Notes: generated from the sequence alone by a model not told the origin. Counted from the stretch's first letter, positions 32,989 through 50,170 are shown. The stretch: 64,000 nucleotides of DNA from an uncultured Planctomycetales bacterium (GCA_964586235.1 CAZPIO010000004.1:8402-72401), one strand, 5' to 3'. Made by a program: numbers and translations.

Positions 32989-34077
32989 TTGTCAGCACCG
33001 AAGAACGAAGAACGCGCATACAAGACCCTGCTGTTTGCCGGCCCCTGGCGAATTGAGTTCCGCGACCAGCCGGTCGTGGACCTCAAGCCCGACGAGGTGC
33101 TCATCGAGACGATGTATACCGGCATCAGCCGCGGGACCGAGATGACCGTCTATCGCGGAACGTCGCCGTTCTACCGGAAGCGGTTCGATCCTGTGCCCAG
33201 GTTGTTCGTCGACGGCGACGAGACGTCCTTTCGGTATCCTATGGAATTCGGTTACGAGAACGTCGGACGCATCGTCGAGATGGGCACGGACGTCAGGGGT
33301 TACGAGCTGGGCGATATCGTCTTCACGCCGACGCAGCACGCCGAGAGCATTGTGATGAGCACGACGCAAACGGGCCCGTTTTTCGGCTCGCTCGTGCCGG
33401 TGGTCAAGCTCCCCGGCAACCTATCACCGGAACTGGGTCTGTTTCTGGCCCTGGGCGGCGTGGCCTACAACGCCGTGCTCGACGGTCAACTGTTACTCGG
33501 CGAGAACGTCGCCGTGTTCGGCGCAGGCGTCATCGGCCTGCTGACCGTGCAATTGTGCCGGCTGGCCGGCGCCGCCGGGATCTTCGTCATCGATCCGATC
33601 GAGTCGCGCAGGGCGCTGGCCCGGCGGTTCGGCGCGACCCACGTGTTCGATCCGGGCGGCGGCGAGGATGTCAGCCTGGCGATCCGCGGGCTGACCGGCG
33701 GCCGGGGGGCGGATCTGGCCATCGAACTCAGTGGCACCTATCCCGGCCTGCACGAGGCGATTCGCAGCGTCGGATACAACGGCCGGGTCGTCGTCAGCGG
33801 TTTCCCAATCGGAGCGGGCGAGGAACTCCGGCTCGGCGAGGAGTTTCACCACAACCGTGTCCGGTTGATCAGCTCGCAGTCGTTCGGCGTCTCGCCGCAT
33901 GTGTCGGACCGCTGGGACCCGGCTCGGCGCACGCTGGCGGTACTCGCGATGCTGCCGAAGCTCGATCTTACTCCGATGATCACGCATCGTTTCAGGTTCG
34001 CCGATGCCGCCAAGGCGTTCGAGTTGGTTGATACGCATCCCGAAGATGTCTTACAGGTAGTGCTGCAATATGAGTGA
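32989..34077 (+). CDS. Medium-chain dehydrogenase/reductase (zinc-ADH fold, zinc ligands degenerate)
   Basis: ISRGTE, GYENVG and the VFGAGVIG Rossmann motif. TTG start with a GGAGG RBS. Confidence 0.88.
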   Translation: MSAPKNEERAYKTLLFAGPWRIEFRDQPVVDLKPDEVLIETMYTGISRGTEMTVYRGTSPFYRKRFDPVPRLFVDGDETSFRYPMEFGYENVGRIVEMGTDVRGYELGDIVFTPTQHAESIVMSTTQTGPFFGSLVPVVKLPGNLSPELGLFLALGGVAYNAVLDGQLLLGENVAVFGAGVIGLLTVQLCRLAGAAGIFVIDPIESRRALARRFGATHVFDPGGGEDVSLAIRGLTGGRGADLAIELSGTYPGLHEAIRSVGYNGRVVVSGFPIGAGEELRLGEEFHHNRVRLISSQSFGVSPHVSDRWDPARRTLAVLAMLPKLDLTPMITHRFRFADAAKAFELVDTHPEDVLQVVLQYE

Positions 34078-35017
34078 GCCCTCGACAACCGTTTACCCGA
34101 AGGTCAATCTTGCGATCGGTTACGAAGTGGATCCCTCCTGGCCCCAACGTCCCGCTGGACTGGCTTGGGCGGCCGTGCCCGGTGTCGCCGTGGATGCGGA
34201 CGACCAGGTGTGGGTGTTCACGCGAGCCGAGGTTCCGGTTCAGGTTTTCCGTTCGGATGGCACGTTCATCCGCGCATGGGGGCAGGGGCTGGTCAAATCG
34301 GCCCACCACATCAAGATCGATCGGCAGGGCCACGTCTGGCTGGCGGACAACCTCCGGCATGTCGTCCGCAAGTTCACCCCCGAGGGCGAGTTGCTGACGA
34401 CGCTCGGCACGCCGGACGTACCCGGCTGCGACGAGACTCATCTCAACGGTCCGACCGACATGGCGATCACGCCGTCCGGCGATGTATTCGTTTCCGACGG
34501 CTATGGCAACAGCCGTGTCGCTCATTTCGACAGCCGCGGCCGGTTCGTCAAAGCGTGGGGTCGGCTGGGGGTGCGTCCCGGCGAGTTCAGCCTGCCGCAT
34601 ACCATCGGCATCGATTCGAGCGGCCGCCTGTACGTCGCATGCCGCAACAACGTCCGCGTGCAGGTCTTCGATCAGGATGGCCGCCTGCTCGATGAGTGGC
34701 GCCACCTCATCGTGCCCTGGGGTATGTTCGTGACCCCGCGTGATGACATCTGGATCGTCGGCTCATCCCCCATGCGATGGGAGAAGGATCAGGACCAGCT
34801 TGGCGGGCCGCCCAAGGACCAGGTCTTCATGCGATTCAGTCCCGACGGCCGGGTGCGTCAGCTCTGGACCGTGCCCAAGGCGGCGACTGGACAGGAAAAG
34901 CCCGGCGAGTGCAACATGGTCCACGGTGTCGGTGTTGACTCACGAGGCAGCATCTACGTCGGCGATATCGCCGGCCGTCGCTGTCAGAAATTCGTACGGC
35001 TGGATGCCGACGAGTGA
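34070..35017 (+). CDS. NHL-repeat protein, peptidyl-alpha-hydroxyglycine alpha-amidating lyase-like
   Basis: NHL repeats (AHHIKID, NGPTDMAI...SDGYGNSRV, SLPHTIGID...RNNVRVQVF, HGVGVD). The start overlaps the MDR stop. Confidence 0.85.
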   Translation: MSEPSTTVYPKVNLAIGYEVDPSWPQRPAGLAWAAVPGVAVDADDQVWVFTRAEVPVQVFRSDGTFIRAWGQGLVKSAHHIKIDRQGHVWLADNLRHVVRKFTPEGELLTTLGTPDVPGCDETHLNGPTDMAITPSGDVFVSDGYGNSRVAHFDSRGRFVKAWGRLGVRPGEFSLPHTIGIDSSGRLYVACRNNVRVQVFDQDGRLLDEWRHLIVPWGMFVTPRDDIWIVGSSPMRWEKDQDQLGGPPKDQVFMRFSPDGRVRQLWTVPKAATGQEKPGECNMVHGVGVDSRGSIYVGDIAGRRCQKFVRLDADE

Positions 35018-38747: not shown

Positions 38748-40112
38748 GTGAATCACAGGAAGCAGTGCGTGAGGCAAGGCGGGGCGATTCGGGTGGGTCG
38801 GGCAACGGCTTCGCGACTCGCGATCCTTGCGGTAATGGCTGTCGTCTCGCAGCTTTCTGAGGGCAGCAGGGCAGGCGAGACACGGCCGGCCCCGCGTGAC
38901 GCCGCTTTTCTGAAACGCGAGCGGCGAACCCCTCTGGCACCCGCGCCCCGCGTGTCCGATGTCACCCACACCATCCTTCATTATGACAAAAGCACGTACT
39001 GCGGGCATCCACGAATGGTGGCCTTCGAGTACTTCGGCGGCGGGGAGATTGTCGTCGGGCACTTCCACGCCCCCTGCAAGTACCAGGAGTACGCCGACGT
39101 TCGTCACGTGAACTACCAGTCACGGGCTGTATGCCTTCTTCAGCGATCGACTGACGGCGGAAAGACCTGGCCCAAGGAGAATGATATCGTCGTCTACGAC
39201 CGGACCGTCTCTGCCGAGCGGGAGAACGCGTTTCTCAACCAGCCGAACGCTCCTCGCGAACACTACGACATGTTCCGGCCGGGGTCCATGTTCTTCTCGC
39301 AGAACACCACCGAGCTTCGTGACAAGTCCTTCTGTTTCTTTCTTCGCTCACCGGACAAGGGGCACACCTGGGAGAAAGTGCCGACCGTTCTGACTCACCC
39401 TCGCGGCAACAGGTTCATGCTGCATCGCCATGACACGCCAATCATCCGCATGCCGGACCGCAAGACGCTGCTGGGGGCCTTCCAGATGTGCGATCCGGAC
39501 CGACAGGGGCCGAGCGAGGGAGACCCGGCTGTTTTCTCGAGCACCGACAACGGGCTGTCCTGGCAATTCCTCAGCCGGCCGATCGCGGACCTCTCGAGTA
39601 CGGGCGTTTTCGCTTACACGACGCTCCTGCTGTTGCCCGACGGCGAGCTTCAATGCTACGTCCTGCACATCGACCGCAAGAGCGAGGTGGTTGACGGCTT
39701 GCACTGCGCTATCGCAATGTGTGTCTCGAAGGATGGCGGCAGGGCGTGGGGCGAGGCGGTTCCCATCGTCGGCAAGGGCGGAGGCTGCTGGAAGCACCCC
39801 GGCACTGAGGGCGTGATCTATCGATCGCCCTGGCCGATCCTGCTCAAGGATGGCCGTATCCTGGTCCTGTTCGCCCGGCGGAGGATGCCCGGCGGGATCG
39901 GCGGGGTGGTCAGTTCCGACCAGGGCCGGACATGGAGCGAGGAATTCGTCCTTCGCGACGACGGCAAGTGGTGGGATCTCGGCTATCCGGTCGGCTGCCA
40001 ACTCGAGGACGGCCGCATCTTCACTGCCTACTACTTCAACATGCAGGATGGCAACGGACAGGGCGGCACGCGTCACATCGCCGCTACCTCGTTCCGGCTG
40101 GAGCAACAATGA
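38748..40112 (+). CDS. Asp-box (BNR) sialidase/exo-alpha-ulosonidase-like protein
   Basis: Five Asp-boxes (STDGGKTW, SPDKGHTW, STDNGLSW, SKDGGRAW, SSDQGRTW) and a C-terminal DLGYP. Hydrophobic signal region present. Confidence 0.8.
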   Translation: MNHRKQCVRQGGAIRVGRATASRLAILAVMAVVSQLSEGSRAGETRPAPRDAAFLKRERRTPLAPAPRVSDVTHTILHYDKSTYCGHPRMVAFEYFGGGEIVVGHFHAPCKYQEYADVRHVNYQSRAVCLLQRSTDGGKTWPKENDIVVYDRTVSAERENAFLNQPNAPREHYDMFRPGSMFFSQNTTELRDKSFCFFLRSPDKGHTWEKVPTVLTHPRGNRFMLHRHDTPIIRMPDRKTLLGAFQMCDPDRQGPSEGDPAVFSSTDNGLSWQFLSRPIADLSSTGVFAYTTLLLLPDGELQCYVLHIDRKSEVVDGLHCAIAMCVSKDGGRAWGEAVPIVGKGGGCWKHPGTEGVIYRSPWPILLKDGRILVLFARRRMPGGIGGVVSSDQGRTWSEEFVLRDDGKWWDLGYPVGCQLEDGRIFTAYYFNMQDGNGQGGTRHIAATSFRLEQQ

Positions 40113-42232
40113 GGAAGTGCAGAGGATCCTTGTCGATAGGGGTCATTTTGGCGTGCTGGTGTCCGATGATCGCTGCAGCGGCCGATCTGAGCTCCGAGCA
40201 GATGAACCGCATCATCGCCCGAGGGGACATCCATCGCATGCATGGGCCGCAGTCCAAGCAGGATTGGCTCGTCCTCTACCAGGGCAACGGCCGGTTCGGT
40301 TCCTGCTTCGGACCCTGGGGACTGCACGTCTCCCCGGCGAAGGCTCCTGATTATCAACTGATCGGCGTGACCCGCTTCACTCATCTCAAGCACTTCGTAC
40401 GAGCCAAATACAACGCCGACTACCTGCTGCCCCTGGCTTCGATCTATTGGGACGCCGAGCCGCAGGCCGTCAAGGCATACGAACAGCATCAAACGTTCTA
40501 CGACGGGACCATCCTGACCCGTTTCACAACCGACGCGTATAACGTGGAGGTCTTGAGCTGGTTCGATCCGGTGGATCGCGACGTTGCCGGCTTTCGGATC
40601 GACGCGCAAGGCCGCTGCCCGTCGATCACGGTGGCCCCGTTCCGCGACCTGACCGTGCATTACCAGCAGCAAATGCGGCAGTCATTTGACGGCGAAATCC
40701 AGGGCGATATGTGGCAGGCATCGCTGCGTTGTCTGAGCAGGCAGACGCCTTTCTCGGTCAAGACTGGCGCCGGGATGCAGGCCGTCGCGGAAGGCGTCCG
40801 ATTGAGCCTCAGGCCCGGCCGCAACTACATCCTGGTCGCCGCAGGCGACCGGATCGCCAAATCGGGCGAGGAGTCCCTTCGCCAGACGCTTGACTGGTGG
40901 CACACCACGTGGGATGGCAGCGGCTGGCTTGATCTGCCGGACGACGTGGCTCAGAGGGTTTGGGTGCGGTCGCTCACTTACACGTTCTACTCGCACAATG
41001 ACGACGGCGTCGGTTGCTCGCCGCCGACCGGCCTGGCTGGCAACGGCTGGCCGTTCCCCTTCCCGTTCGACTCCGGGTGCCGCCATCCGCTCTTGCTCTG
41101 GACCGGGCACATCGACGCGGCCCGAAAGTGGGTGGAGTTCTGGTCCAGTCGGTCCGAGGGTCTGTACAAATACACGCGTCGGATCTGGCACCGCGACGGA
41201 ACCATGCTGCCCCACGTATTCCCCTACGGGTCCGCGGAGGACTATCACCTGCCTGAGCCGCCAAACGTCAATTACTATCCCGTCTACCTGGCCGGGCACC
41301 TCGCCCGCATGGCCCATCAGACGGCCGTCATGGTGAACGACCCGCAGTGGACCCGGACGTATGCCGCCCCCCTCATCGAAGGCGCCGCACGGTTCTATCT
41401 TGATATCGCGAAAAAGGGTGAAGACGGCTTGTGGCATTTCACCGTGGTCCCGTCGATTGGCCTGGACGAAGACGGCGGCGTCGACCAGCCCGACTACATC
41501 TGCACTCTGGTCAGCGCCGACTACGCTTTCCATCGGGCGATCGAGTACGGTCTGGACAAGGATGGCCGGATGGCGACGATTCTTCGCGAAGGAATCGCAT
41601 ACAAGGCCCTTCTCTCCGATCGCGGCATCTACTACGCGAATCTTGGGACCGGCGCGAAAGACTGGAGCCACCAGAAGCATCCGGACCAGCTCAGTGCCCT
41701 GGTTCATCTTCCACTCGGCCCCGCCCCGGATGCCCCGACCGGACGAAGCCACGAATTCCGTTATGAGATCACCGCCGGCGCGAACAAACCCGCATTCATC
41801 GGCCATACCCTCGGTGAGATCATTCTTTCAAGTGCGAGGATGCAGAACGCCGATGCCTGGCGCCAGGACTGGGCCAAGGTCCAGCCGTCAAAATACGCAG
41901 ACCCGGACTGGATCCAGTTCTACGAGTCCAGCGGTAGCAATCTCCGCTACTACGTGACCACACATGGGCTTTTCGCCCAGGCGATCCTCGAGACGGTCGT
42001 TTCAACCTGGTGGGAGCGCCTGGATCTGGCTCCGTGCGTCCCCTGGCCGGGCAAAGTGCGATTCGGCAACCTGCGCACCCTGCTGGGGGTCACTGTCTGG
42101 GGCGAAGTGACCGACGGTCGGGGGACGGCCGAACTGGTGGCGTGGAAGGACACGACCGTTCTCCTTCGTGATCGCAAGATCACGCTCAAGAAGGGCGAAA
42201 GGATCATCATCGAGTTGACTCCGCCTCGCTAA
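40109..42232 (+). CDS. Glycoside hydrolase, GH95/GH65-like (alpha/alpha)6 fold
   Basis: Signal peptide, LYQGNGRFG, GLDE, HQKHPDQL and FYES, plus a C-terminal FGNLRT beta domain. The ATG overlaps the upstream stop (ATGA). Confidence 0.6.
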   Translation: MRKCRGSLSIGVILACWCPMIAAAADLSSEQMNRIIARGDIHRMHGPQSKQDWLVLYQGNGRFGSCFGPWGLHVSPAKAPDYQLIGVTRFTHLKHFVRAKYNADYLLPLASIYWDAEPQAVKAYEQHQTFYDGTILTRFTTDAYNVEVLSWFDPVDRDVAGFRIDAQGRCPSITVAPFRDLTVHYQQQMRQSFDGEIQGDMWQASLRCLSRQTPFSVKTGAGMQAVAEGVRLSLRPGRNYILVAAGDRIAKSGEESLRQTLDWWHTTWDGSGWLDLPDDVAQRVWVRSLTYTFYSHNDDGVGCSPPTGLAGNGWPFPFPFDSGCRHPLLLWTGHIDAARKWVEFWSSRSEGLYKYTRRIWHRDGTMLPHVFPYGSAEDYHLPEPPNVNYYPVYLAGHLARMAHQTAVMVNDPQWTRTYAAPLIEGAARFYLDIAKKGEDGLWHFTVVPSIGLDEDGGVDQPDYICTLVSADYAFHRAIEYGLDKDGRMATILREGIAYKALLSDRGIYYANLGTGAKDWSHQKHPDQLSALVHLPLGPAPDAPTGRSHEFRYEITAGANKPAFIGHTLGEIILSSARMQNADAWRQDWAKVQPSKYADPDWIQFYESSGSNLRYYVTTHGLFAQAILETVVSTWWERLDLAPCVPWPGKVRFGNLRTLLGVTVWGEVTDGRGTAELVAWKDTTVLLRDRKITLKKGERIIIELTPPR

Positions 42233-42351
42233 TCGCCGATGGCTCCTGGTTTGGTCAACCGCGCGCCCGGGGTCTTCCACTTGTTGAGGCTCGGCTTTGG
42301 TGGCATCCTATGAGATCGGCCTGGAACGCCGAGCTGCTTTGGAGCGCAAGA

Positions 42352-43233
42352 ATGAGAATTCAGGGACCGGTTTTTGCGATGGTCACGCCGTTCGATGCCG
42401 GAGGAGACGTTGACTTCGGCGCTCTCGATGACTACCTGCGGTTTCTCAGCGAGCACGGCGTACGGAACATCGCCGTCAATGGGACAACCGGCGAATTCGC
42501 CTCGCTGACCCTGCCGGAGCGCATGCTGATGGTCGAGCGCTGCCGGAAGGCATTCAACGGCACGATCGTTAACCACATCAGCTCTTGCAGCAGCCGCGAC
42601 TGCCGGATGCTGCTCGACCATTCCCGTGATCATGCCGACGCCGTTCTGCTCCTGCCGCCGTTCTACTATGCGAACGTCGAAGAAGCCGGATGCCTGGCGT
42701 TCATGAGGGAGGTGCTTGCTCAGAACACGATGCCGGCGTTTCTGTACAACTTCCCCGAGCACACGCAGTTCCGGATCAGTCCCGAGATGCTCCGGCTGCT
42801 GTCGGCGGAGTTCGAGTCTCTCGTCGGGATCAAGGATTCGGGCGGGGACCTTCGAGTATCGAGGGCCTACAAGCAAGCCGCACCGCGCCTGCAAGTGTTT
42901 GTGGGCAGCGATCGGTGGGCTCTGGAGGTTCTGAAGATGGGCCTGGACGGCTCGGTAACCGGATGCGGCAATCCCGTGCCCGAGTTCCCGGCGGCCCTGC
43001 ATGCCCGGTTCGTTTCGGGCGACGTTGAGGCGGCCGCCCGCGCGCAGCAGGCATTCGACCGCTGGACTGACTTCCGTGAGGCTCTGCCGATCAATCATTT
43101 GTCGGTCACCAAGGCTGGTCTGGCGGCTCGCATCCCGAATTTTCCTCCCTATGTCCGGCCTCCGTTCGTGACCGCCGACCCGGCGAGCATCGAGCGTGTT
43201 CGTGAGGCTCTGAAGGAGATGGGTCTTGATTGA
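42352..43233 (+). CDS. DapA/NanA-family class I aldolase, probably for a 2-keto-3-deoxy sugar acid
   Basis: AMVTPF, NGTTGE, PPFYY, LYNFPEHT and the Schiff-base motif GIKDS. The DHDPS Arg of YNVPxRT is missing. Confidence 0.88.
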   Translation: MRIQGPVFAMVTPFDAGGDVDFGALDDYLRFLSEHGVRNIAVNGTTGEFASLTLPERMLMVERCRKAFNGTIVNHISSCSSRDCRMLLDHSRDHADAVLLLPPFYYANVEEAGCLAFMREVLAQNTMPAFLYNFPEHTQFRISPEMLRLLSAEFESLVGIKDSGGDLRVSRAYKQAAPRLQVFVGSDRWALEVLKMGLDGSVTGCGNPVPEFPAALHARFVSGDVEAAARAQQAFDRWTDFREALPINHLSVTKAGLAARIPNFPPYVRPPFVTADPASIERVREALKEMGLD

Positions 43234-44317
43234 CCGCGTCGAGCGACTCCCTCGCCCGGACCCCGATGTCAGCCGCTTGACGGCCGTTATGCGGCGGCAG
43301 CGGCCGGATCGTGTGCCCCTTCTGGAGCTGAAGCTCGACGAGGAGGTGCGAAGCGCACTGGCCGGCGAGCCCCTGGTGCCGTGGTGGACGGGCGCACCGG
43401 CCGATCAGCGACGGCATGCGGTGCGGCAATTCGTGAAGCTGATGCACCGGCTGGGCTACGATGCATTCTGGGTCCCCACGAACGTGCCGTTCGTTTTTCA
43501 GACGGACGCGACCGTGGACACCGCGCTGCTGAATCGCGGTGAACGCAGATGGCAGAGCGAGCACGGTGGTCCTATCCAGTCGCTGCACGATCTCGAGCGG
43601 TATCCCTGGCCGAAGCTCTCGGACATCGATTTTGGCCCGGCCGAGGAGATTGCCCGCGTCCTTCCCGACGGCATGGGCTGCATCGGCTTCTGTAACGGTG
43701 TCTTCGAGTGGAGCAGTTGGCTCATGGGCCTGGAATCGTTCGCCCTGGCCCTGCACGACCAGCCCGTTCTCGTGCGAGAGGTGGTGGATCGTGTCGGCAG
43801 CTTCATCTATCAGGTCTATGGGGTCTGGGTGCAGCGCGAGGAGATGGTCGCACTCTGGAGCGGTGATGACATGGGCTTCAAAACGGGCACGCTCATCGCC
43901 CCGGATCACCTGCGCGAACACATCCTCCCCTGGCACAGGCGTTACGCTGAGTTGGCCCACCGCCACGGCAAGGCCTACATCCTGCATTCCTGCGGTAATC
44001 TCCGTGCGATCATGCCGGACCTGGCAGATGATGTGAGGATCGACGCCAAGCACAGCTTTGAGGATGTGATCGAGCCCGTCGAGGAGTTCCACCGGCAGTG
44101 GAGCGGTCGCGTGGCGGCTGTCGGCGGGGTGGACGTCGACCTGCTGGCCCGCGGAAGCGAGGAGGCCGTTATGCGCAGGACGCGGCAGATCCTCGAAGCG
44201 TGTGCACCACGGGGCGGGTACGCCGCCGGTTCGGGCAACACCGTGACCAACTACGTGCCCGTCGACAACTATCTGGCCATGGTCGAAACGATTCACCGAT
44301 TCAACGGCCGGCTGTAG
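43226..44317 (+). CDS. Uroporphyrinogen decarboxylase (URO-D/MtaA) superfamily protein
   Basis: RPDRVP, GDDMGFKTG, ILHSCGN, GGVDVD and GGYAAGSGNTV. TTG start with an AAGGAG RBS overlapping the aldolase end. Confidence 0.85.
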   Translation: MIDRVERLPRPDPDVSRLTAVMRRQRPDRVPLLELKLDEEVRSALAGEPLVPWWTGAPADQRRHAVRQFVKLMHRLGYDAFWVPTNVPFVFQTDATVDTALLNRGERRWQSEHGGPIQSLHDLERYPWPKLSDIDFGPAEEIARVLPDGMGCIGFCNGVFEWSSWLMGLESFALALHDQPVLVREVVDRVGSFIYQVYGVWVQREEMVALWSGDDMGFKTGTLIAPDHLREHILPWHRRYAELAHRHGKAYILHSCGNLRAIMPDLADDVRIDAKHSFEDVIEPVEEFHRQWSGRVAAVGGVDVDLLARGSEEAVMRRTRQILEACAPRGGYAAGSGNTVTNYVPVDNYLAMVETIHRFNGRL

Positions 44318-44369
44318 AGTGGAGTGAGGCATCGCCCAAATCGAGGCATCAAGCGGGAGGATACGACCC

Positions 44370-47066
44370 ATGTCCGATCAGAAGCGCACCGCGCACTATG
44401 TGGCGAGCACTCACTGGGACCGCGAGTGGTATGAGCCGTTTCAGGACTACCGCTTCCGGCTCGTCAGGCTCATGGATGAGGTCCTGGACTTCATGCAGGT
44501 TGAGCCGGAGTTCAAGTACTTCCACACCGACGGCCAGGCGATCCTCATCGAGGACTACCTGGAGGCCAGGCCGGAGCGGGAGGCCCAGTTGCGGGCCCTG
44601 GCCGAGGCCGGCCGTCTGCGGATCGGCCCGTGGTACGTCATGCCCGATGAGTTCGTCATCTCGGGCGAGTCTCTCATCCGCAACCTGCAACTGGGGCTGG
44701 CCACCAGCAGCCGTTACGGCCGGCCGTCCCGCGTCGGATTCGTCTGCGACATGTTCGGCCACATCTCGCAGTTGCCGCAGATTCTTCGCGGTTTCGGTAT
44801 TGATAGCGCGTTCTTCTTCCGGGGAACCAACGACCGAACGCATGGGGCCGTCTGGCGATGGCAAGGGGCCGACGGCTCGGAGGTCATCGTCAACCGTTTC
44901 CCGCGCATTCATGGTTACACCGCGTACGCGTATCACGTGCGGAAGGTCATGTCGCTGGACGAGCCGTTCGACCTCGATTCAGCGACGGCCGAGCTTGTGC
45001 AGATGGTGCATCGCGAGAAGAACCGCCACAGCACGCCCTCGTTCCTGCTCTTCGACGGCTCCGATCACATCGAGATCGAGCCGCAGACGATCGAGCTTCT
45101 GCGTCGGGTCAACGACAGGCTCCAGGATGTCCGGATCATCCACTCGAATCTTGAGGCCTTCGTCGAGGACCTGCGGGCCCAGCAGGCCCACATCATCGAC
45201 GTGTTCAAGGGCGAGCTTCGCGATCCGGCCGAAGTCGGTGACGACGCGCTGCTCCTGCACGGCGTGTTGTCCAGCCGGATGTACCTCAAGCAGGCCAACG
45301 CCCGCTGCGAAAACGAGCTCTGCCTGTGGGCTGAGCCGTTCGCTGCCTTCGCTGACCGGCTGGGCGAGCCGTATCCCCATCAGTTCCTGAACCTGGCCTG
45401 GCGAGACCTGATCACCAACCATGCTCATGACTCGATGTGCGGCTGCTCGCTCGACGCCGTGCACGAGGACATGATGGGCCGTTTCCGGCAGTCGTTGCAG
45501 ATCTCACGCCACGTGGCGACCGATGCGCTGCGGCAGATCGCCCTGAGCGTCGAGCGGCCGGCGATGAGCGAGAAGGACTTCACTGTTGTTGCGTTCAATC
45601 CCGGGGCGGATGACCTTGACGGCCCGGTGGATCTGACCCTTCGCTTCCCCGTCGATACCGATTCGCTGTTCCATGAGGGACTGGGCTACGAGCCGAAGGT
45701 GAGCTTCCGTCTTTATGATGCTGCCGGCACCGAACTGCCTTATCAGCTCGTCAACCAGCGATGGAATCGCCATGGTTTCCGCCGGCCTCTGAAGAAGTTT
45801 CCGGGTCCGGACGATCGGCACGAAGTGGACGTGAGCGTGCACCTCCGTATCCCGTCTTATGGATACACCACCCTTGTGTGTCGTCCGGCCGCCCGTGGAG
45901 AGCCGACAAGATACCCGGGTACGATGCTGGTCGATCCGCGTACGATCGAGAACGAGTACCTGCGCGTGCGCGTCCAGCCGAACGGGACGCTGTCTCTGCT
46001 GGACAAGCGAAGCAACCAGACATACGACGACCTGCTGATGTTCGAGGACTGCGCCGACATCGGCGACGGCTGGTACCACGGCCCTGCGGTCAACGACGAG
46101 GTGTTCAATTCGGGCGGTTGCGCGAGCGAGGTGGCGGTCGTCGCCAACGGGATCTGCAAGGCCACGCTGAAGGTGACGCTCAGACTCGATCTGCCGCGTT
46201 GTTTCCGCTTTGACCGCATGATGCGCAGTGAAGAGACGGCGCCGATGCGGATCACCAGCTTCGTGACGCTTCGACAGGAGACCGATCATGTCGAGGTGCA
46301 CACCGTGGTTGAGAACACGATCCGCGATCATCGGCTTCGGGTGCTCCTGCCGACCAGTGCGAAGGCGGACACCTATTTTGCCGACAGCGCGTTCGACGTG
46401 GTCGAACGGCCGATTGCTTTGCGGGCGGACAACGCCTCGTATCGCGAGATGGAGGTCGAGACGAAGCCCCAGTACACCTGGACGGCGGTCTGCGAAAGCG
46501 TGACTCAGGACCGCGGGTTGGCCGTGGTCAGCACAGGGCTGCCCGAGTCAGCGGTCTGCGATCTGCCGGGCCGGCCGATCGCCCTGACTCTGCTGCGATC
46601 GTTTATCAAAGCCTTCATGACCGATGGCAATGAGGGCGGCCAGATGCAGGGCACGCACGAGTTCGACTACCTGCTTGTTCCACTCAACGGCTCGTTGCAG
46701 CAAGTCAGGCTCTGTCGGCTCGGACAGAGACTGGCCGCTCCGCCGAGATGTGTGCAGATCGAGCGGCGGGATCTGGCCAACGCCCCGAAAACCGCCTTGC
46801 CCGCAGGCCACTCATTCCTGAAGCTTAACTCCGGCCAGTCAGTTGTCACCGCTGTTCACATGCTCAAGGACCGGCAGGGGTGGCTTGTCCGTCTGTTCAA
46901 TCCGACTGACGAGACGATCACCGAGACGCTCGAATGCCCCCATCCCATTCGTTCGGCTGAGCATGTTGACCTGGAAGGCCGGCCGATTACCGCCCTGGCC
47001 GTTTCAGGCGGCCGGGTCTCGCTGTCCCTGGATCCCCGGCAGATCGTTACCCTGCGGCTCGCGTAG
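44370..47066 (+). CDS. GH38 alpha-mannosidase family protein
   Basis: STHWDREWY, TDGQA, IGPWYVMPDE, CDMFGH, GSDH, NHAHDSMCGCS and RDHRLRV. GGAGG RBS. Confidence 0.93.
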   Translation: MSDQKRTAHYVASTHWDREWYEPFQDYRFRLVRLMDEVLDFMQVEPEFKYFHTDGQAILIEDYLEARPEREAQLRALAEAGRLRIGPWYVMPDEFVISGESLIRNLQLGLATSSRYGRPSRVGFVCDMFGHISQLPQILRGFGIDSAFFFRGTNDRTHGAVWRWQGADGSEVIVNRFPRIHGYTAYAYHVRKVMSLDEPFDLDSATAELVQMVHREKNRHSTPSFLLFDGSDHIEIEPQTIELLRRVNDRLQDVRIIHSNLEAFVEDLRAQQAHIIDVFKGELRDPAEVGDDALLLHGVLSSRMYLKQANARCENELCLWAEPFAAFADRLGEPYPHQFLNLAWRDLITNHAHDSMCGCSLDAVHEDMMGRFRQSLQISRHVATDALRQIALSVERPAMSEKDFTVVAFNPGADDLDGPVDLTLRFPVDTDSLFHEGLGYEPKVSFRLYDAAGTELPYQLVNQRWNRHGFRRPLKKFPGPDDRHEVDVSVHLRIPSYGYTTLVCRPAARGEPTRYPGTMLVDPRTIENEYLRVRVQPNGTLSLLDKRSNQTYDDLLMFEDCADIGDGWYHGPAVNDEVFNSGGCASEVAVVANGICKATLKVTLRLDLPRCFRFDRMMRSEETAPMRITSFVTLRQETDHVEVHTVVENTIRDHRLRVLLPTSAKADTYFADSAFDVVERPIALRADNASYREMEVETKPQYTWTAVCESVTQDRGLAVVSTGLPESAVCDLPGRPIALTLLRSFIKAFMTDGNEGGQMQGTHEFDYLLVPLNGSLQQVRLCRLGQRLAAPPRCVQIERRDLANAPKTALPAGHSFLKLNSGQSVVTAVHMLKDRQGWLVRLFNPTDETITETLECPHPIRSAEHVDLEGRPITALAVSGGRVSLSLDPRQIVTLRLA

Positions 47067-48611
47067 GCGGAGGTCCCACACCGTCAGGCCAGTCGAATCG
47101 CGCTTGCTCAGGTCCGGAAGGAGCAAGGACGCGATGTAGCCGACGGCGAACGAGGTGACATTCGAGCAGGTCGACAGCAGGAACGCATGGAACGGGAACC
47201 GGTATACTTGCCAGGCTTTCGGAAGGGTGATCTGCGCGAGCTCCAGCAGCTTGTCGGAGGTGCCCCAGGCGGTAACCGCAACGCCGGCCGCCAGACCGAT
47301 GTACACCCCCAGGGCGTGCGCCCGCCGCACGAGGAAAGCCAGCAGGAAAATGCCGAACAGGCCGCCGGCCAGGATTGAGTAGACCGTATAGCTGAAATCC
47401 AGCGCCTCCTGCACGCCGAGCATAGCCAGTCCCGCCGTGGTCCCGAGTGCCCCCCAGAAGCAGGTCGCGATCTTCGACAGCCTCAGGAGATGCCGGTCAG
47501 AAGCATGCGGGCGCACGCGGCGATAGAAATCGTTGATGGACACGAGCGCCATGCTGTTCATGTTCGTGTCGAGACAGGACACCCCCGCGGCGCACATCGC
47601 CGCGAGAACCAAACCGACCATTCCCGTCGGCAGGCAGGTCATCACGAAGTAAGGGAACACCCGGGTGTGCTCCGCAGCGATCTCCGCGGGCAGACGGCCT
47701 GGATAGATCTGGTATCGCGAGTAGAGCAGCGTGCCGATGAACATGAAAAGCGTCCAGGTGAACAGGCAGCCGCAGGCCCCGATCCAGACTCCCTTTCTCG
47801 CTTCGTGTACCGACTTCACGGCCAGGTAACGCTGCACGGTTTCCTGGGTCGTCGAGTAGCCGGAGCTGAAGCCGAAGAGCCCCATGAGCATCATGACCAG
47901 AATCGTCGGCTCGCTCAGATCGAAAGAGAGGTGAGCCAGTCGGAACTTGTCCGCACTGGCGGCCATCTCGATCATGTTCACCGGCCCGCCCGCGGTGGTT
48001 GTCAGGAGAACCGCGGCGCTGACCAGGCCGCCCAGCAGCAGCACGCCGGTCTGCAGGACATCCGTGCAGATCACGGCTTCGATGCCGCCGAGCACCGTGT
48101 AACCGATGGTGATCACCCCCGTCACCAGGATGACCAGCCGGACATCCCAGCCTGTCATGGTCTGGATGGCCTTGGCCTCGAGGAAGACGATAAAACCCAT
48201 CCGGAACAGGTTGTTGAGGATGTACAGCGTGGCCGCGAAGGCACGCGCGGGATATCCAAAGCGTTTTTCGAGGTACTCGTAGGGGCCGGCGCGGACCGTC
48301 CGGCGGTAGAACGGGATCACCACCAGGGTGATAAAGAGCACGGCAACAGGCAGCATGAAACCCGGCAGCAGGTTGGTCCAGTCGTCGCCGAAGCCGTCCG
48401 CCGGGTATGCCAGGAACGTCGCCGTGCTGATCGCCCCGGCGAAAAGTGAGATACCCGCCGCCCAGCCGGGTACGGAACGGCCGCCCATGAAGTACTCCTC
48501 GGTACTTGTTTGGCGGCGCGCGAACACCAGGCCGATCAGGGCAACGAGTCCAAAATAGACGACGACGACGCCCCAGTCTATCCACGTCAGAGTTTTGGCT
48601 GCCTCTTCCAC
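47004..48611 (-). CDS. Sodium:solute symporter (SSS), SiaT/sugar-type
   Basis: IDWGVVVVYF, EEYFMGGRSVPGWAAGISLFA, YEYLEKRFG, GGIEAVICTD and QETVQRY, with many TM helices. The GTG start at 48611 has a GAGG RBS. Confidence 0.92.
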   Translation of the reverse strand: MEEAAKTLTWIDWGVVVVYFGLVALIGLVFARRQTSTEEYFMGGRSVPGWAAGISLFAGAISTATFLAYPADGFGDDWTNLLPGFMLPVAVLFITLVVIPFYRRTVRAGPYEYLEKRFGYPARAFAATLYILNNLFRMGFIVFLEAKAIQTMTGWDVRLVILVTGVITIGYTVLGGIEAVICTDVLQTGVLLLGGLVSAAVLLTTTAGGPVNMIEMAASADKFRLAHLSFDLSEPTILVMMLMGLFGFSSGYSTTQETVQRYLAVKSVHEARKGVWIGACGCLFTWTLFMFIGTLLYSRYQIYPGRLPAEIAAEHTRVFPYFVMTCLPTGMVGLVLAAMCAAGVSCLDTNMNSMALVSINDFYRRVRPHASDRHLLRLSKIATCFWGALGTTAGLAMLGVQEALDFSYTVYSILAGGLFGIFLLAFLVRRAHALGVYIGLAAGVAVTAWGTSDKLLELAQITLPKAWQVYRFPFHAFLLSTCSNVTSFAVGYIASLLLPDLSKRDSTGLTVWDLRLREPQGNDLPGIQGQRDPAA

Positions 48612-48659
48612 TGTAAACCTCTTCGAATCCGGAACCACAGCGCTCGACAGGCGGCGAGC

Positions 48660-48862: not shown

Positions 48863-50014
48863 TCACACCGAGGCCACGGACTGCCGCGGGATCAGATCGA
48901 CGTCGATGACTGCATGCTCGGGCTCGATATCGATCTTGGGCGTCTGCAGACGTCGCTCGAGCAGCTCCACCGCTTTCCTCCCGATCTCCGTCGGCCGCTG
49001 TGCGACCACGGTCACCGGAGGCGTTATCGCCCGTGTGATATCCGAGTCGTCGACGCAGATGATGGAGACATCCTTCGGGATGCGCAACCCCAGCTCGCGG
49101 CACGCCTCGAAAGCACCCCACGCCACGTAATCATTGAGCGCGAAAAACGCCAGGGGCGGCCGGCAGTCCTGCAGCAGGGGCAACACCGCCTCGTACCCCT
49201 CGAGCCACCGCTTGCCCTCCCGAATGCCGCGCTTCGAAGCCTCAGGGTCGATCCAGACCATGTGTTTGCGGGTTGGCTCGGTGTCGCCTGCGATCATGGC
49301 CCTCTCAAAGCCGCGGATTCTCGCTGCAATCGAGGTCATGACCGACGGTTGCCAGGTGATCATGAAAACCTGCCGGTGTCCGTGTTGGAGCAGGTATTCG
49401 GTGGCCAGGTAGCCGGCCTTCTCATGGTCCGACTCGACGAGATCGACCCTCAACCCCGGCACGCCGCGATCCACGAGCACGATGGTGTGTCCGGCGAGTT
49501 TGAGCTTTACGAGAGTCTCCAGATTGGCGTGGCCGCCGCTCGGCAGGATGATCGTCCCGCGCGCCCCGGAGTCGATCAGCCGGGTGAGGTTGCTGGCCTC
49601 GAGATCGTCGCTGAGGCGTGCGTCATAGATGAGCAGCTCCCAGCCGCGCTGCTGGCAGGCTTGCTCGATGCTGCGAGCGATCTGCATCTCGAACGCCCCG
49701 CCGATGTTGATGGTTGTCACGGCGATCGTCACGCGTTTCCCGGCCTTGCTCGGGAAGGAAGGATGGACAAAGGCTCCCACGTCGCGCACATGGTAAAGGC
49801 ACCCCTCTCGCTCCAATACGCGGATCGCCTGTCGGATCGTGTTGGTGCTCACATTGAACTGGGTGGCGAGATCGCGGAGGGCAGGCAGTTTCACCCCGGC
49901 GATCAGTTGACCGTCGGTCATCTGCCGGCGCAACGCCTCCGTCACCGCACGGTAACGCGGAGCCCGGGGACGCCCGAGGACGTTGCGGTCGATCTTGCTC
50001 TGTCTGGCCTTCAT
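48863..50014 (-). CDS. GntR-HTH plus LacI-type sugar-binding domain transcriptional regulator (AraR-like architecture)
   Basis: LPALRDLATQFNVSTNTIRQAIRVLEREG wHTH followed by a periplasmic-binding-protein domain (VLVDR, FFALNDYVA, IPKDVSIICVDD). Confidence 0.92.
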   Translation of the reverse strand: MKARQSKIDRNVLGRPRAPRYRAVTEALRRQMTDGQLIAGVKLPALRDLATQFNVSTNTIRQAIRVLEREGCLYHVRDVGAFVHPSFPSKAGKRVTIAVTTINIGGAFEMQIARSIEQACQQRGWELLIYDARLSDDLEASNLTRLIDSGARGTIILPSGGHANLETLVKLKLAGHTIVLVDRGVPGLRVDLVESDHEKAGYLATEYLLQHGHRQVFMITWQPSVMTSIAARIRGFERAMIAGDTEPTRKHMVWIDPEASKRGIREGKRWLEGYEAVLPLLQDCRPPLAFFALNDYVAWGAFEACRELGLRIPKDVSIICVDDSDITRAITPPVTVVAQRPTEIGRKAVELLERRLQTPKIDIEPEHAVIDVDLIPRQSVASV

Positions 50015-50027
50015 ACCTATAGGATAA

Positions 50028-50170
50028 TCACTTTGTGACAGCGATTCAAGAGGAAACAAGTCGCTGTGAGAGCTCTTTGGTAGTACCTAAAGTATTGTTA
50101 TAGAACATGTTAAGGCCGATGAGGTGAAAATCGACTTGTTTCTCTGAAAACGCGACGTCACATTGTGACG
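50028..50170. promoter_or_regulatory. Mirror-symmetric divergent control region with candidate operators
   Basis: TCACTTTGTGAC (50028-50039) and CGTCACATTGTGACG (50156-50170). Perfect inverted pair GAAACAAGTCG (50053-50063) / CGACTTGTTTC (50132-50142). AT-rich core with TG-T-TATAGA at 50096-50104. Confidence 0.6.

Follow-up and report, generated by a model that had tools for sequence, protein, structure and literature searches.

The window analyzed here, a stretch of 64,000 nucleotides from an uncultured Planctomycetales bacterium whose named relatives are uncultured Phycisphaerae, carries a run of five glycan-related genes facing a transporter gene and its regulator. Comparison with related genomes and with other loci of the same genome shows that these genes form a real, partly conserved glycan-breakdown cluster, and we tentatively interpret it as serving the use of a mannose-containing glycan that carries a sugar with a carboxylate group. 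The seven genes are as follows.

38748..40112, plus strand: Asp-box propeller (BNR_2), 454 amino acids; PF13088 at 36.5 bits; five S-x-D-x-G-x-[TS]-W Asp boxes
40109..42232, plus strand: predicted GH65-like inverting glycoside hydrolase, 707 amino acids; fold of the GH65/GH95/GH139 type
42310/42352..43233, plus strand: class I pyruvate aldolase of the DHDPS/NAL superfamily, 293 amino acids from Met15; PF00701 at 138 bits
43226..44317, plus strand: URO-D-fold protein with a probable zinc site, 363 amino acids; PF01208 at 74.5 bits
44370..47066, plus strand: GH38 alpha-mannosidase-type hydrolase, cytoplasmic, 898 amino acids; four GH38 Pfam domains
47004..48638, minus strand: sodium:solute symporter of the SiaT/SMCT-like carboxylate-carrier group, 544 amino acids; SSF
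48863..50059, minus strand: GntR-HTH regulator fused to a LacI-type sugar-binding domain; Pfam GntR and Peripla_BP_1/3/4

Open reading frame (ORF) listing and profile searches recovered all seven genes where the original prediction had placed them. The ORFs and profile scores agree with its Asp-box, GH38, sodium:solute symporter (SSS) and regulator labels, and the ORF listing with its arrangement of five co-oriented genes opposite the symporter and regulator genes. Spacing in the plus-strand run is close. The gene for the 707-amino-acid hydrolase most likely starts at 40109, giving a 4-bp overlap with the propeller stop codon, and for the aldolase, after a gap of about 119 bp, Met15 (42352) is the likeliest start, in agreement with database homologs; the URO-D-fold gene overlaps the aldolase stop codon by 8 bp, and the GH38 gene begins 52 bp further downstream. 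The GH38 and symporter genes are convergent and share 63 bp at their 3' ends (47004-47066), and the regulator gene lies upstream of the symporter gene in the same direction. The G+C content is 63% throughout the window. Promoter and terminator scans gave hits at chance level only.

As expected of GH33 enzymes, the first gene product is a six-bladed beta-propeller with Asp boxes in its AlphaFold2 (AF2) model (pLDDT 87.5). Residues 20-38 form a hydrophobic helix, which goes with a predicted secreted or membrane-anchored location. Its top Foldseek match was Dfer_1899 of Dyadobacter fermentans (5HX0), followed by GH33 sialidases (TM-score about 0.5-0.55, E about 1e-12). Dfer_1899, the best match in both sequence and fold, shares the DLGYP and YYFN motifs with the window propeller but not two motifs that never vary in the family of the latter, H-P-R and Y-R-S-P, and is itself uncharacterized. 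Residues invariant in this family are H87, Y290, R359, R377, R378, and Y413. Because the family profile aligned to sialidases only via Asp-box segments and out of register, we mapped the active site onto Micromonospora viridifaciens sialidase (1EUR) via P0395, a BNR_2 paralog from elsewhere in this genome (contig C108). P0395 aligns in register with this sialidase, with His in place of the RIP Arg, Gln in place of Glu260, and retention of Arg276, Arg342, and the nucleophilic Tyr. In this low-identity mapping, the GH33 Arg triad of the window propeller is not intact: the invariant His87, within H-P-R, takes the place of the RIP Arg and Leu306 that of the second Arg, and the third Arg is possibly kept as the invariant R377 or R378. 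The invariant Y413, within G-Y-P, falls at the nucleophile position. The Glu partner of this Tyr is missing, its position (Gln in P0395) falling around Y290, and H-A-P stands where the D-A-P of sialidases bears the acid/base residue. Thus, as far as these alignments indicate, the protein is a sialidase fold without the canonical catalytic set, and the expectation of an Arg-triad ulosonidase, which had been set beforehand as a test, failed at two of the Arg positions. Among the homologs of the propeller, P0143, P0155, and P0159 carry a fused GH130 domain or fused Laminin_G_3 domains.

For the 707-amino-acid protein no Pfam or NCBIfam match was obtained, all Pfam GH65 models scoring below threshold. 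However, its family profile matched FjGH65A, an alpha-1,2-glucosidase of Flavobacterium johnsoniae (PDB 7FE3; E 9e-28), and its AF2 model (pLDDT 94) retrieved GH65, GH95, and GH139 structures at a TM-score of about 0.7, which agrees with the label "GH95/65-like" given to it earlier. Mutagenesis of FjGH65A has shown Glu472 to be the general acid and Glu616 the general base (PMC8626586), and in the alignment these residues correspond to E454 and E606, respectively, of the window protein. Because the three-domain fold and both catalytic Glu residues are kept, we predict an inverting hydrolase rather than a phosphorylase, and its N terminus, resembling a signal peptide, suggests export. The Trp-Glu pair of the FjGH65A +1 subsite is not retained, and since no Pfam GH65 model exceeds threshold, the protein is best classified by sequence as belonging to a distant sister family of GH65 rather than to GH65 proper. 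This family is rare, with 182 representatives among 1.8 billion proteins. In Bacteroidota-like metagenome loci its members are accompanied by SusC/D-sized, melibiase-like, GH92, GH130-like, GH127, and Gfo/Idh/MocA genes, and most metagenome loci of the family contain none of the genes of the window; a propeller gene adjoins the GH65-like gene only in the window, in locus L002, and in L099/L100. In four Bacteroidota-like polysaccharide utilization loci (L101, L103, L104, and L111), a conserved 715-amino-acid melibiase-like protein precedes the GH65-like gene.

The aldolase scored below every NCBIfam equivalog cut-off despite its clear PF00701 match, and its top NCBIfam score, 130 bits, was to the archaeal KD(P)G aldolase model. 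It contains the motifs GTTGEF, Y132-N-F-P-x-H137, and K161-D-S163. Direct alignment with Escherichia coli DapA, NanA, YagE, and YjhH equated the Schiff-base K161 and the catalytic Y132 with K165 and Y137 of NanA, residues common to the whole superfamily, and placed His137 at the position of DapA Arg138. This agrees with the original prediction, which had noted both the YNFP motif and the lack of the DHDPS Arg. The score against the DapA model TIGR00674 was 127 bits (cut-off, 206 bits), and an identity as DapA was rejected: the true DapA of this genome is encoded on contig C152, scores 291 bits, and groups with E. coli DapA at 100/100 support. A resemblance to NanA was borne out neither by score (TIGR00683, 45.5 versus a cut-off of 382 bits; PRK04147, 66.1 versus 281 bits) nor by residues or tree position. 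At the positions of E. coli NanA Ser47, Glu192, and Ser208, which we take to be sialic acid-contacting residues, the window aldolase has Thr, Arg (a position variable in the family), and Gly. In a maximum-likelihood tree, in which the deep branching was not resolved, the aldolase belongs to a clade separate from NanA, DapA, and YagE/YjhH (support 99/97, stem 1.76). Members of this clade occur in Nocardia, Pseudonocardiaceae, methanotrophs, Beggiatoaceae, Chloroflexota, and Sumerlaeota, and no gene context that is common to them or related to sugars was seen. In Nocardia (L018), Methylomicrobium (L061), and Halobeggiatoa (L071), the neighbors of clade members 39-46% identical to the window aldolase are rpoB, a remnant Tn3 transposase gene, and a gene for a lytic transglycosylase, and sugar genes are absent nearby; further neighbors of distant relatives encode a pterin-binding protein and a type IV secretion ATPase. 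A 50% identical homolog (P0043) is present in the gene set of the green alga Tetraselmis striata and could stem from a bacterial contaminant or be a transferred gene. Tetraselmis thecae are rich in Kdo-type acids.

H254, C256, and C326 are invariant in the family of the URO-D-fold protein, and a His-Cys-Cys zinc site is therefore probable; C326 is the distal Cys that the original prediction had recorded as missing. Matches to MtaA/CmuA were weak. The fold and the invariant His-x-Cys with a distal Cys about 70 residues on resemble the zinc site of MtaA/MtbA-type methyltransferases, but the protein scores 47 bits against a cut-off of 244 bits, no corrinoid protein is encoded in the locus, its setting is a glycan operon, and it belongs to an expansion of 32 URO-D-family matches in the 7.9-Mb genome (about 20 in most relatives). 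B12-binding genes are absent from the window; of the 16 in the genome, one, encoding a small protein, adjoins a URO-D paralog on contig C110, the sole paralog with such a neighbor. Close paralogs lie on C56, beside genes for a GH63-type (MGH1-like) hydrolase, an SGL lactonase, and a GHL10 protein, and on C29, beside a GHL10 gene. A literature search for URO-D-type genes in glycan loci found no paper. The URO-D-fold expansion, several members of which lie by GH38, DHDPS, or BNR_2 genes, is the part of this system likeliest to conceal new chemistry. HemE identity was rejected for the window protein, the true HemE probably being a 415-bit match on contig C179.

In the GH38 protein, the N-terminal, middle, and two C-terminal Pfam domains all exceeded their cut-offs, and the match to the MngB model PRK09819 extended over the full length at 456 bits (cut-off, 1138 bits). 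It has no signal peptide, whereas the propeller and the GH65-like protein have hydrophobic N-terminal leaders. Among solved structures, SiaT (5NV9; E 1.4e-63) is the best relative of the symporter, with SMCT1 and NIS next, which agrees with the earlier label of a SiaT-like SSS transporter. SiaT Arg135, which presumably binds the substrate carboxylate (residue roles being those we take from the SiaT structure), is kept together with Ser60 and Thr63; Thr58, Phe78, and Gln82 are replaced by Ala, Asn, and Phe, respectively. This residue pattern would suit a carboxylate cargo other than ordinary Neu5Ac. According to a published study, all SSS sialic acid carriers (ST5 family) fall into one clade, in which uncharacterized groups are also found (PMC8461474). 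The GntR/PBP regulator has 12 paralogs in the genome, which head other glycan loci.

Gene neighborhoods were compared by related-locus searches, genome searches, and ORF calling with tblastn. Three orthologous loci share different subsets of the cluster. Locus L002 contains the propeller, the GH65-like gene, the aldolase, GH38, and the symporter but lacks the URO-D-fold gene. L003 contains an FAH-family gene, an ADP-ribosylglycohydrolase-family (ARH) gene, URO-D, GH38, the symporter, the aldolase, an MDR-type dehydrogenase gene, an NHL gene, and a GH95 gene, with the symporter and aldolase genes diverging from one 140-bp spacer. L001 contains the aldolase, ARH, and URO-D. The GH38 orthologs in L002 and L003 are 71% identical. 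In L003, orthologs (70% identical) of two further genes of the window directly follow the aldolase, so that aldolase, MDR, NHL, and GH95 genes form one string. The two genes of the window are as follows.

32989-34077, plus strand: MDR-type dehydrogenase; Pfam ADH_zinc_N and Glu_dehyd_C
34070-35017, plus strand: NHL/SGL-like propeller; Pfam NHL and SGL; overlaps the MDR gene

Because its orthologs directly follow the aldolase in L003, this pair is tied to the aldolase by synteny, although it lies 3.7 kb from the five-gene run in the window, with two minus-strand genes between. The FucI-like/FGGY pair at 11-14 kb, which the original prediction had proposed to handle the released aldose, is not linked in any of the orthologous loci; the conserved partners are MDR and NHL instead.

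The combination also recurs within the genome itself. On contig C108 (L097:4721-17905), genes for an SSS protein (39% identical), the BNR_2 protein P0395 (PF13088 at 172 bits), a 645-amino-acid protein, a GntR/PBP regulator, a DHDPS-family protein (24% identical), and a GH38 protein display the same architecture as the window locus, built from very divergent parts. An operon on the minus strand of C3 (L149:4835-18049) encodes a 402-amino-acid protein, an MFS sugar transporter, a URO-D-fold protein (407 amino acids), a 513-amino-acid protein, GH38, a 727-amino-acid protein, a Tat-exported GH29 fucosidase, and BNR_2. C123 (L150:5214-10999) encodes a 765-amino-acid protein in which a four-carbon acid-sugar kinase (SBD_N and NBD_C) is fused to DHDPS, and next to it a URO-D-fold protein (467 amino acids) and a GKRP/MurQ-like SIS protein, which constitutes a second DHDPS/URO-D adjacency. 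C112 carries BNR_2 together with GH38. An SSS gene lies within 10 kb of three of the six non-DapA DHDPS matches (about 0.2 expected under uniform placement), and a BNR_2 gene lies within 12 kb of 4 of the 10 GH38 matches (about 0.3 expected). The linkage in L001-L003 and the analogous set on C108 show that the gene arrangement exceeds chance. In line with the absence of nanE noted earlier for the window, a search of this 90%-complete genome did not find NanE (PF04131); one AGE-family gene and two subthreshold NagA-like genes are present elsewhere in it.

From these gene identities and linkages we infer the following sequence of reactions. The propeller and the GH65-like hydrolase, both exported, would trim a glycan outside the cytoplasm, and the SiaT-like sodium symporter would take up the resulting anionic mono- or oligosaccharide. 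In the cytoplasm, GH38 would strip alpha-mannose, the URO-D-fold protein, probably a zinc enzyme, would perform a tailoring step, and the class I aldolase would cut the 2-keto-3-deoxy acid formed in this way, giving pyruvate and an aldehyde. The MDR dehydrogenase and the NHL propeller may oxidize this aldehyde or the released hexose, and the GntR/sugar-binding regulator would govern the gene set. A sialidase-fold protein, a carboxylate symporter, and a pyruvate aldolase that are conserved and repeated as a trio are best matched by a pathway in which an acidic keto-deoxy sugar is released, imported, and cleaved; the tight operon layout, the distribution of N-terminal leaders, the SiaT-like Arg135, the Lys161/Tyr132/K-D-S set of a non-DapA aldolase, the synteny, and the recurrence all fit this interpretation. 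If it is true, it would provide a first function for four families and would point to what uncultured Phycisphaerae of biofilms and sediments use as carbon, for example, acidic glycans of microbial or algal origin.

A close known parallel is provided by nan clusters, composed of the GH33 sialidase NanH, an SSS carrier such as SiaT of the ST5 family (PMC8461474), and the lyase NanA. The window locus likewise combines an exported sialidase-fold protein, a sodium symporter with the conserved Arg, a class I aldolase, and a dedicated regulator. However, neither the Arg triad nor the Tyr/Glu pair appears intact, the aldolase falls outside the NanA clade and lacks the NanA sialic acid contacts, NanE, NanK, and NanM are missing, and GH38, the GH65-like hydrolase, and the URO-D-fold protein are integral parts of the locus. 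Of the ulosonic acid-scavenging module originally proposed, the outline stood, namely, the sialidase fold, the SiaT-like symporter, and the non-DapA aldolase, a trio that recurs on C108; the Arg triad, the NanA-likeness, and the choice of Kdo or Kdn were not supported. The acid sugar could be an ulosonic acid, although there are several other candidates, and nothing singles out Kdo, Kdn, or sialic acid.

Several observations weigh against an acidic-sugar locus. Conservation is narrow: 4 of 61 related genomes yielded the aldolase, the orthologous core is common to only three other genomes, and no protein of 300 other Planctomycetota matched the propeller profile at E <= 1e-80 when only five candidates per genome were scored. 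GH38, SSS, and GntR/PBP regulators are generic parts of many loci in this genome (for example, on C33 and C54), and the co-locations described above, about tenfold over uniform expectation, are only indicative, as glycan genes cluster anyway, which weakens the statistic. With its broken triad and an active site unlike that of sialidases, the propeller may not cleave any ketoside. The aldolase substrate might be a common metabolite, considering that the clade is found beside unrelated genes in Nocardia, methanotrophs, Beggiatoaceae, and Sumerlaeota. Finally, the propeller subfamily, the GH65-like family, the aldolase clade, and the URO-D-fold family, four key families of the locus, are without a characterized member.

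A stricter version of the ulosonic acid proposal would make the propeller a Kdo, Kdn, or sialic acid ulosonidase, the symporter an importer of the free ulosonic acid, and the aldolase a source of pyruvate plus D-arabinose, D-mannose, or ManNAc, with lipopolysaccharide, capsules, algal scales, or other microbial glycans as the starting material. The sialidase fold with Y413 at the nucleophile position, the retained Arg135 of the symporter, and the second BNR_2, DHDPS, and SSS trio on C108 are all in keeping with it; the hexose dehydrogenase/lactonase-like pair linked to the aldolase could accept the released aldose, and GH38 would suit a disaccharide of mannose and an ulosonate. We nevertheless regard it as unlikely. 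His87 and Leu306 in the triad, the lost Glu partner, and H-A-P for D-A-P speak against such catalysis, and the nearest propeller structure is an uncharacterized protein and no sialidase. The NanA model scores of 45-66 bits fall far short of cut-offs of 281-382 bits, the sialic acid contacts of NanA are replaced, and the tree places the aldolase outside NanA. The three substitutions in the symporter, the failure to find NanE in the genome, and the missing synteny of FucI/FGGY point in the same direction. We give equal weight, and thus the same low likelihood, to a nonphosphorylative oxidative route for a neutral sugar, such as mannose released by GH38 or a deoxyhexose released by the GH65/95-like enzyme. 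In such a route, MDR would form a lactone, NHL would open it, a dehydratase, possibly of the URO-D fold, would generate a 2-keto-3-deoxy acid, and the aldolase would split it. The linkage of a dehydrogenase and a lactonase-like propeller to the aldolase recalls the nonphosphorylative Entner-Doudoroff scheme. Consistent with this, aldolase, MDR, NHL, and GH95 genes form one string in L003, the MDR and NHL genes overlap in the window, MDR matches the C-terminal domain of archaeal glucose dehydrogenase, and the URO-D paralog on C56 adjoins SGL lactonase and GH63-type hydrolase genes. The aldolase itself has the archaeal KD(P)G model as its best NCBIfam match and shares the YNFP, K-D-[ST], and GEF motifs with YagE/YjhH. 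However, it is only 24-25% identical to these proteins and lies outside their clade, a His replaces their Leu after YNFP-x, and the locus contains no partner dehydratase of the YagF type and no other recognized sugar-acid dehydratase. Moreover, a neutral sugar needs no carboxylate-type symporter, and the MDR/NHL pair is set apart from the five-gene run in the window.

The same symporter and GH38 could, in principle, serve a compatible solute of the mannosylglycerate type (mannosylglycerate or mannosylglucosylglycerate), imported by the former and hydrolyzed by the latter as an MngB-like enzyme. The full-length MngB alignment, the resemblance of the symporter to carboxylate carriers, the activity of GH65 enzymes on alpha-1,2-glucosides, and the MGH1-like GH63 gene adjoining a URO-D paralog agree with this, and Rhodopirellula makes mannosylglucosylglycerate. 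We consider this explanation very improbable, as the MngB score is well under its cut-off, the GH65-like and BNR proteins are exported, glycerate requires no pyruvate aldolase, and the BNR, URO-D, MDR, and NHL proteins would be left without a role. It is also possible, if quite improbable, that no single pathway is encoded and that unrelated glycan genes are merely packed together in this genome. The whole window is dense in such genes, including those for dockerin proteins, FG-GAP proteins, DUF4838, Gfo/Idh/MocA, and a GH130-like protein; GH38, SSS, and the regulator type are reused across many loci; and the relatives of the GH65-like gene have different neighbors in Bacteroidota-like polysaccharide utilization loci. 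The overlapping start and stop codons, the linkage kept through rearrangement in L001-L003, and the analogous gene set on C108 argue against mere packing.

Within the favored acidic-sugar reading, it is tempting to speculate on a new route, although we view its specifics as doubtful. The substrate would be a modified (e.g., O-methylated) keto-deoxy acid sugar linked to mannose, a His/His/Arg set would replace the Arg triad of the propeller, zinc-dependent tailoring by the URO-D-fold protein would be obligatory before or after aldol cleavage, and the cleavage would be carried out by a new DHDPS clade. If this were true, the fact that URO-D-fold, BNR_2, GH38, and DHDPS genes are repeatedly paired in the genome would mark a general type of pathway in Phycisphaerae.

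One gene of the orthologous loci is found apart from the cluster in the genome of the window. The ARH gene lies directly upstream of the URO-D ortholog in L003 (3044-4348) and in L001 (2187-3515), and its 69% identical ortholog in the genome of the window is encoded on a different contig (C47:471-1769).

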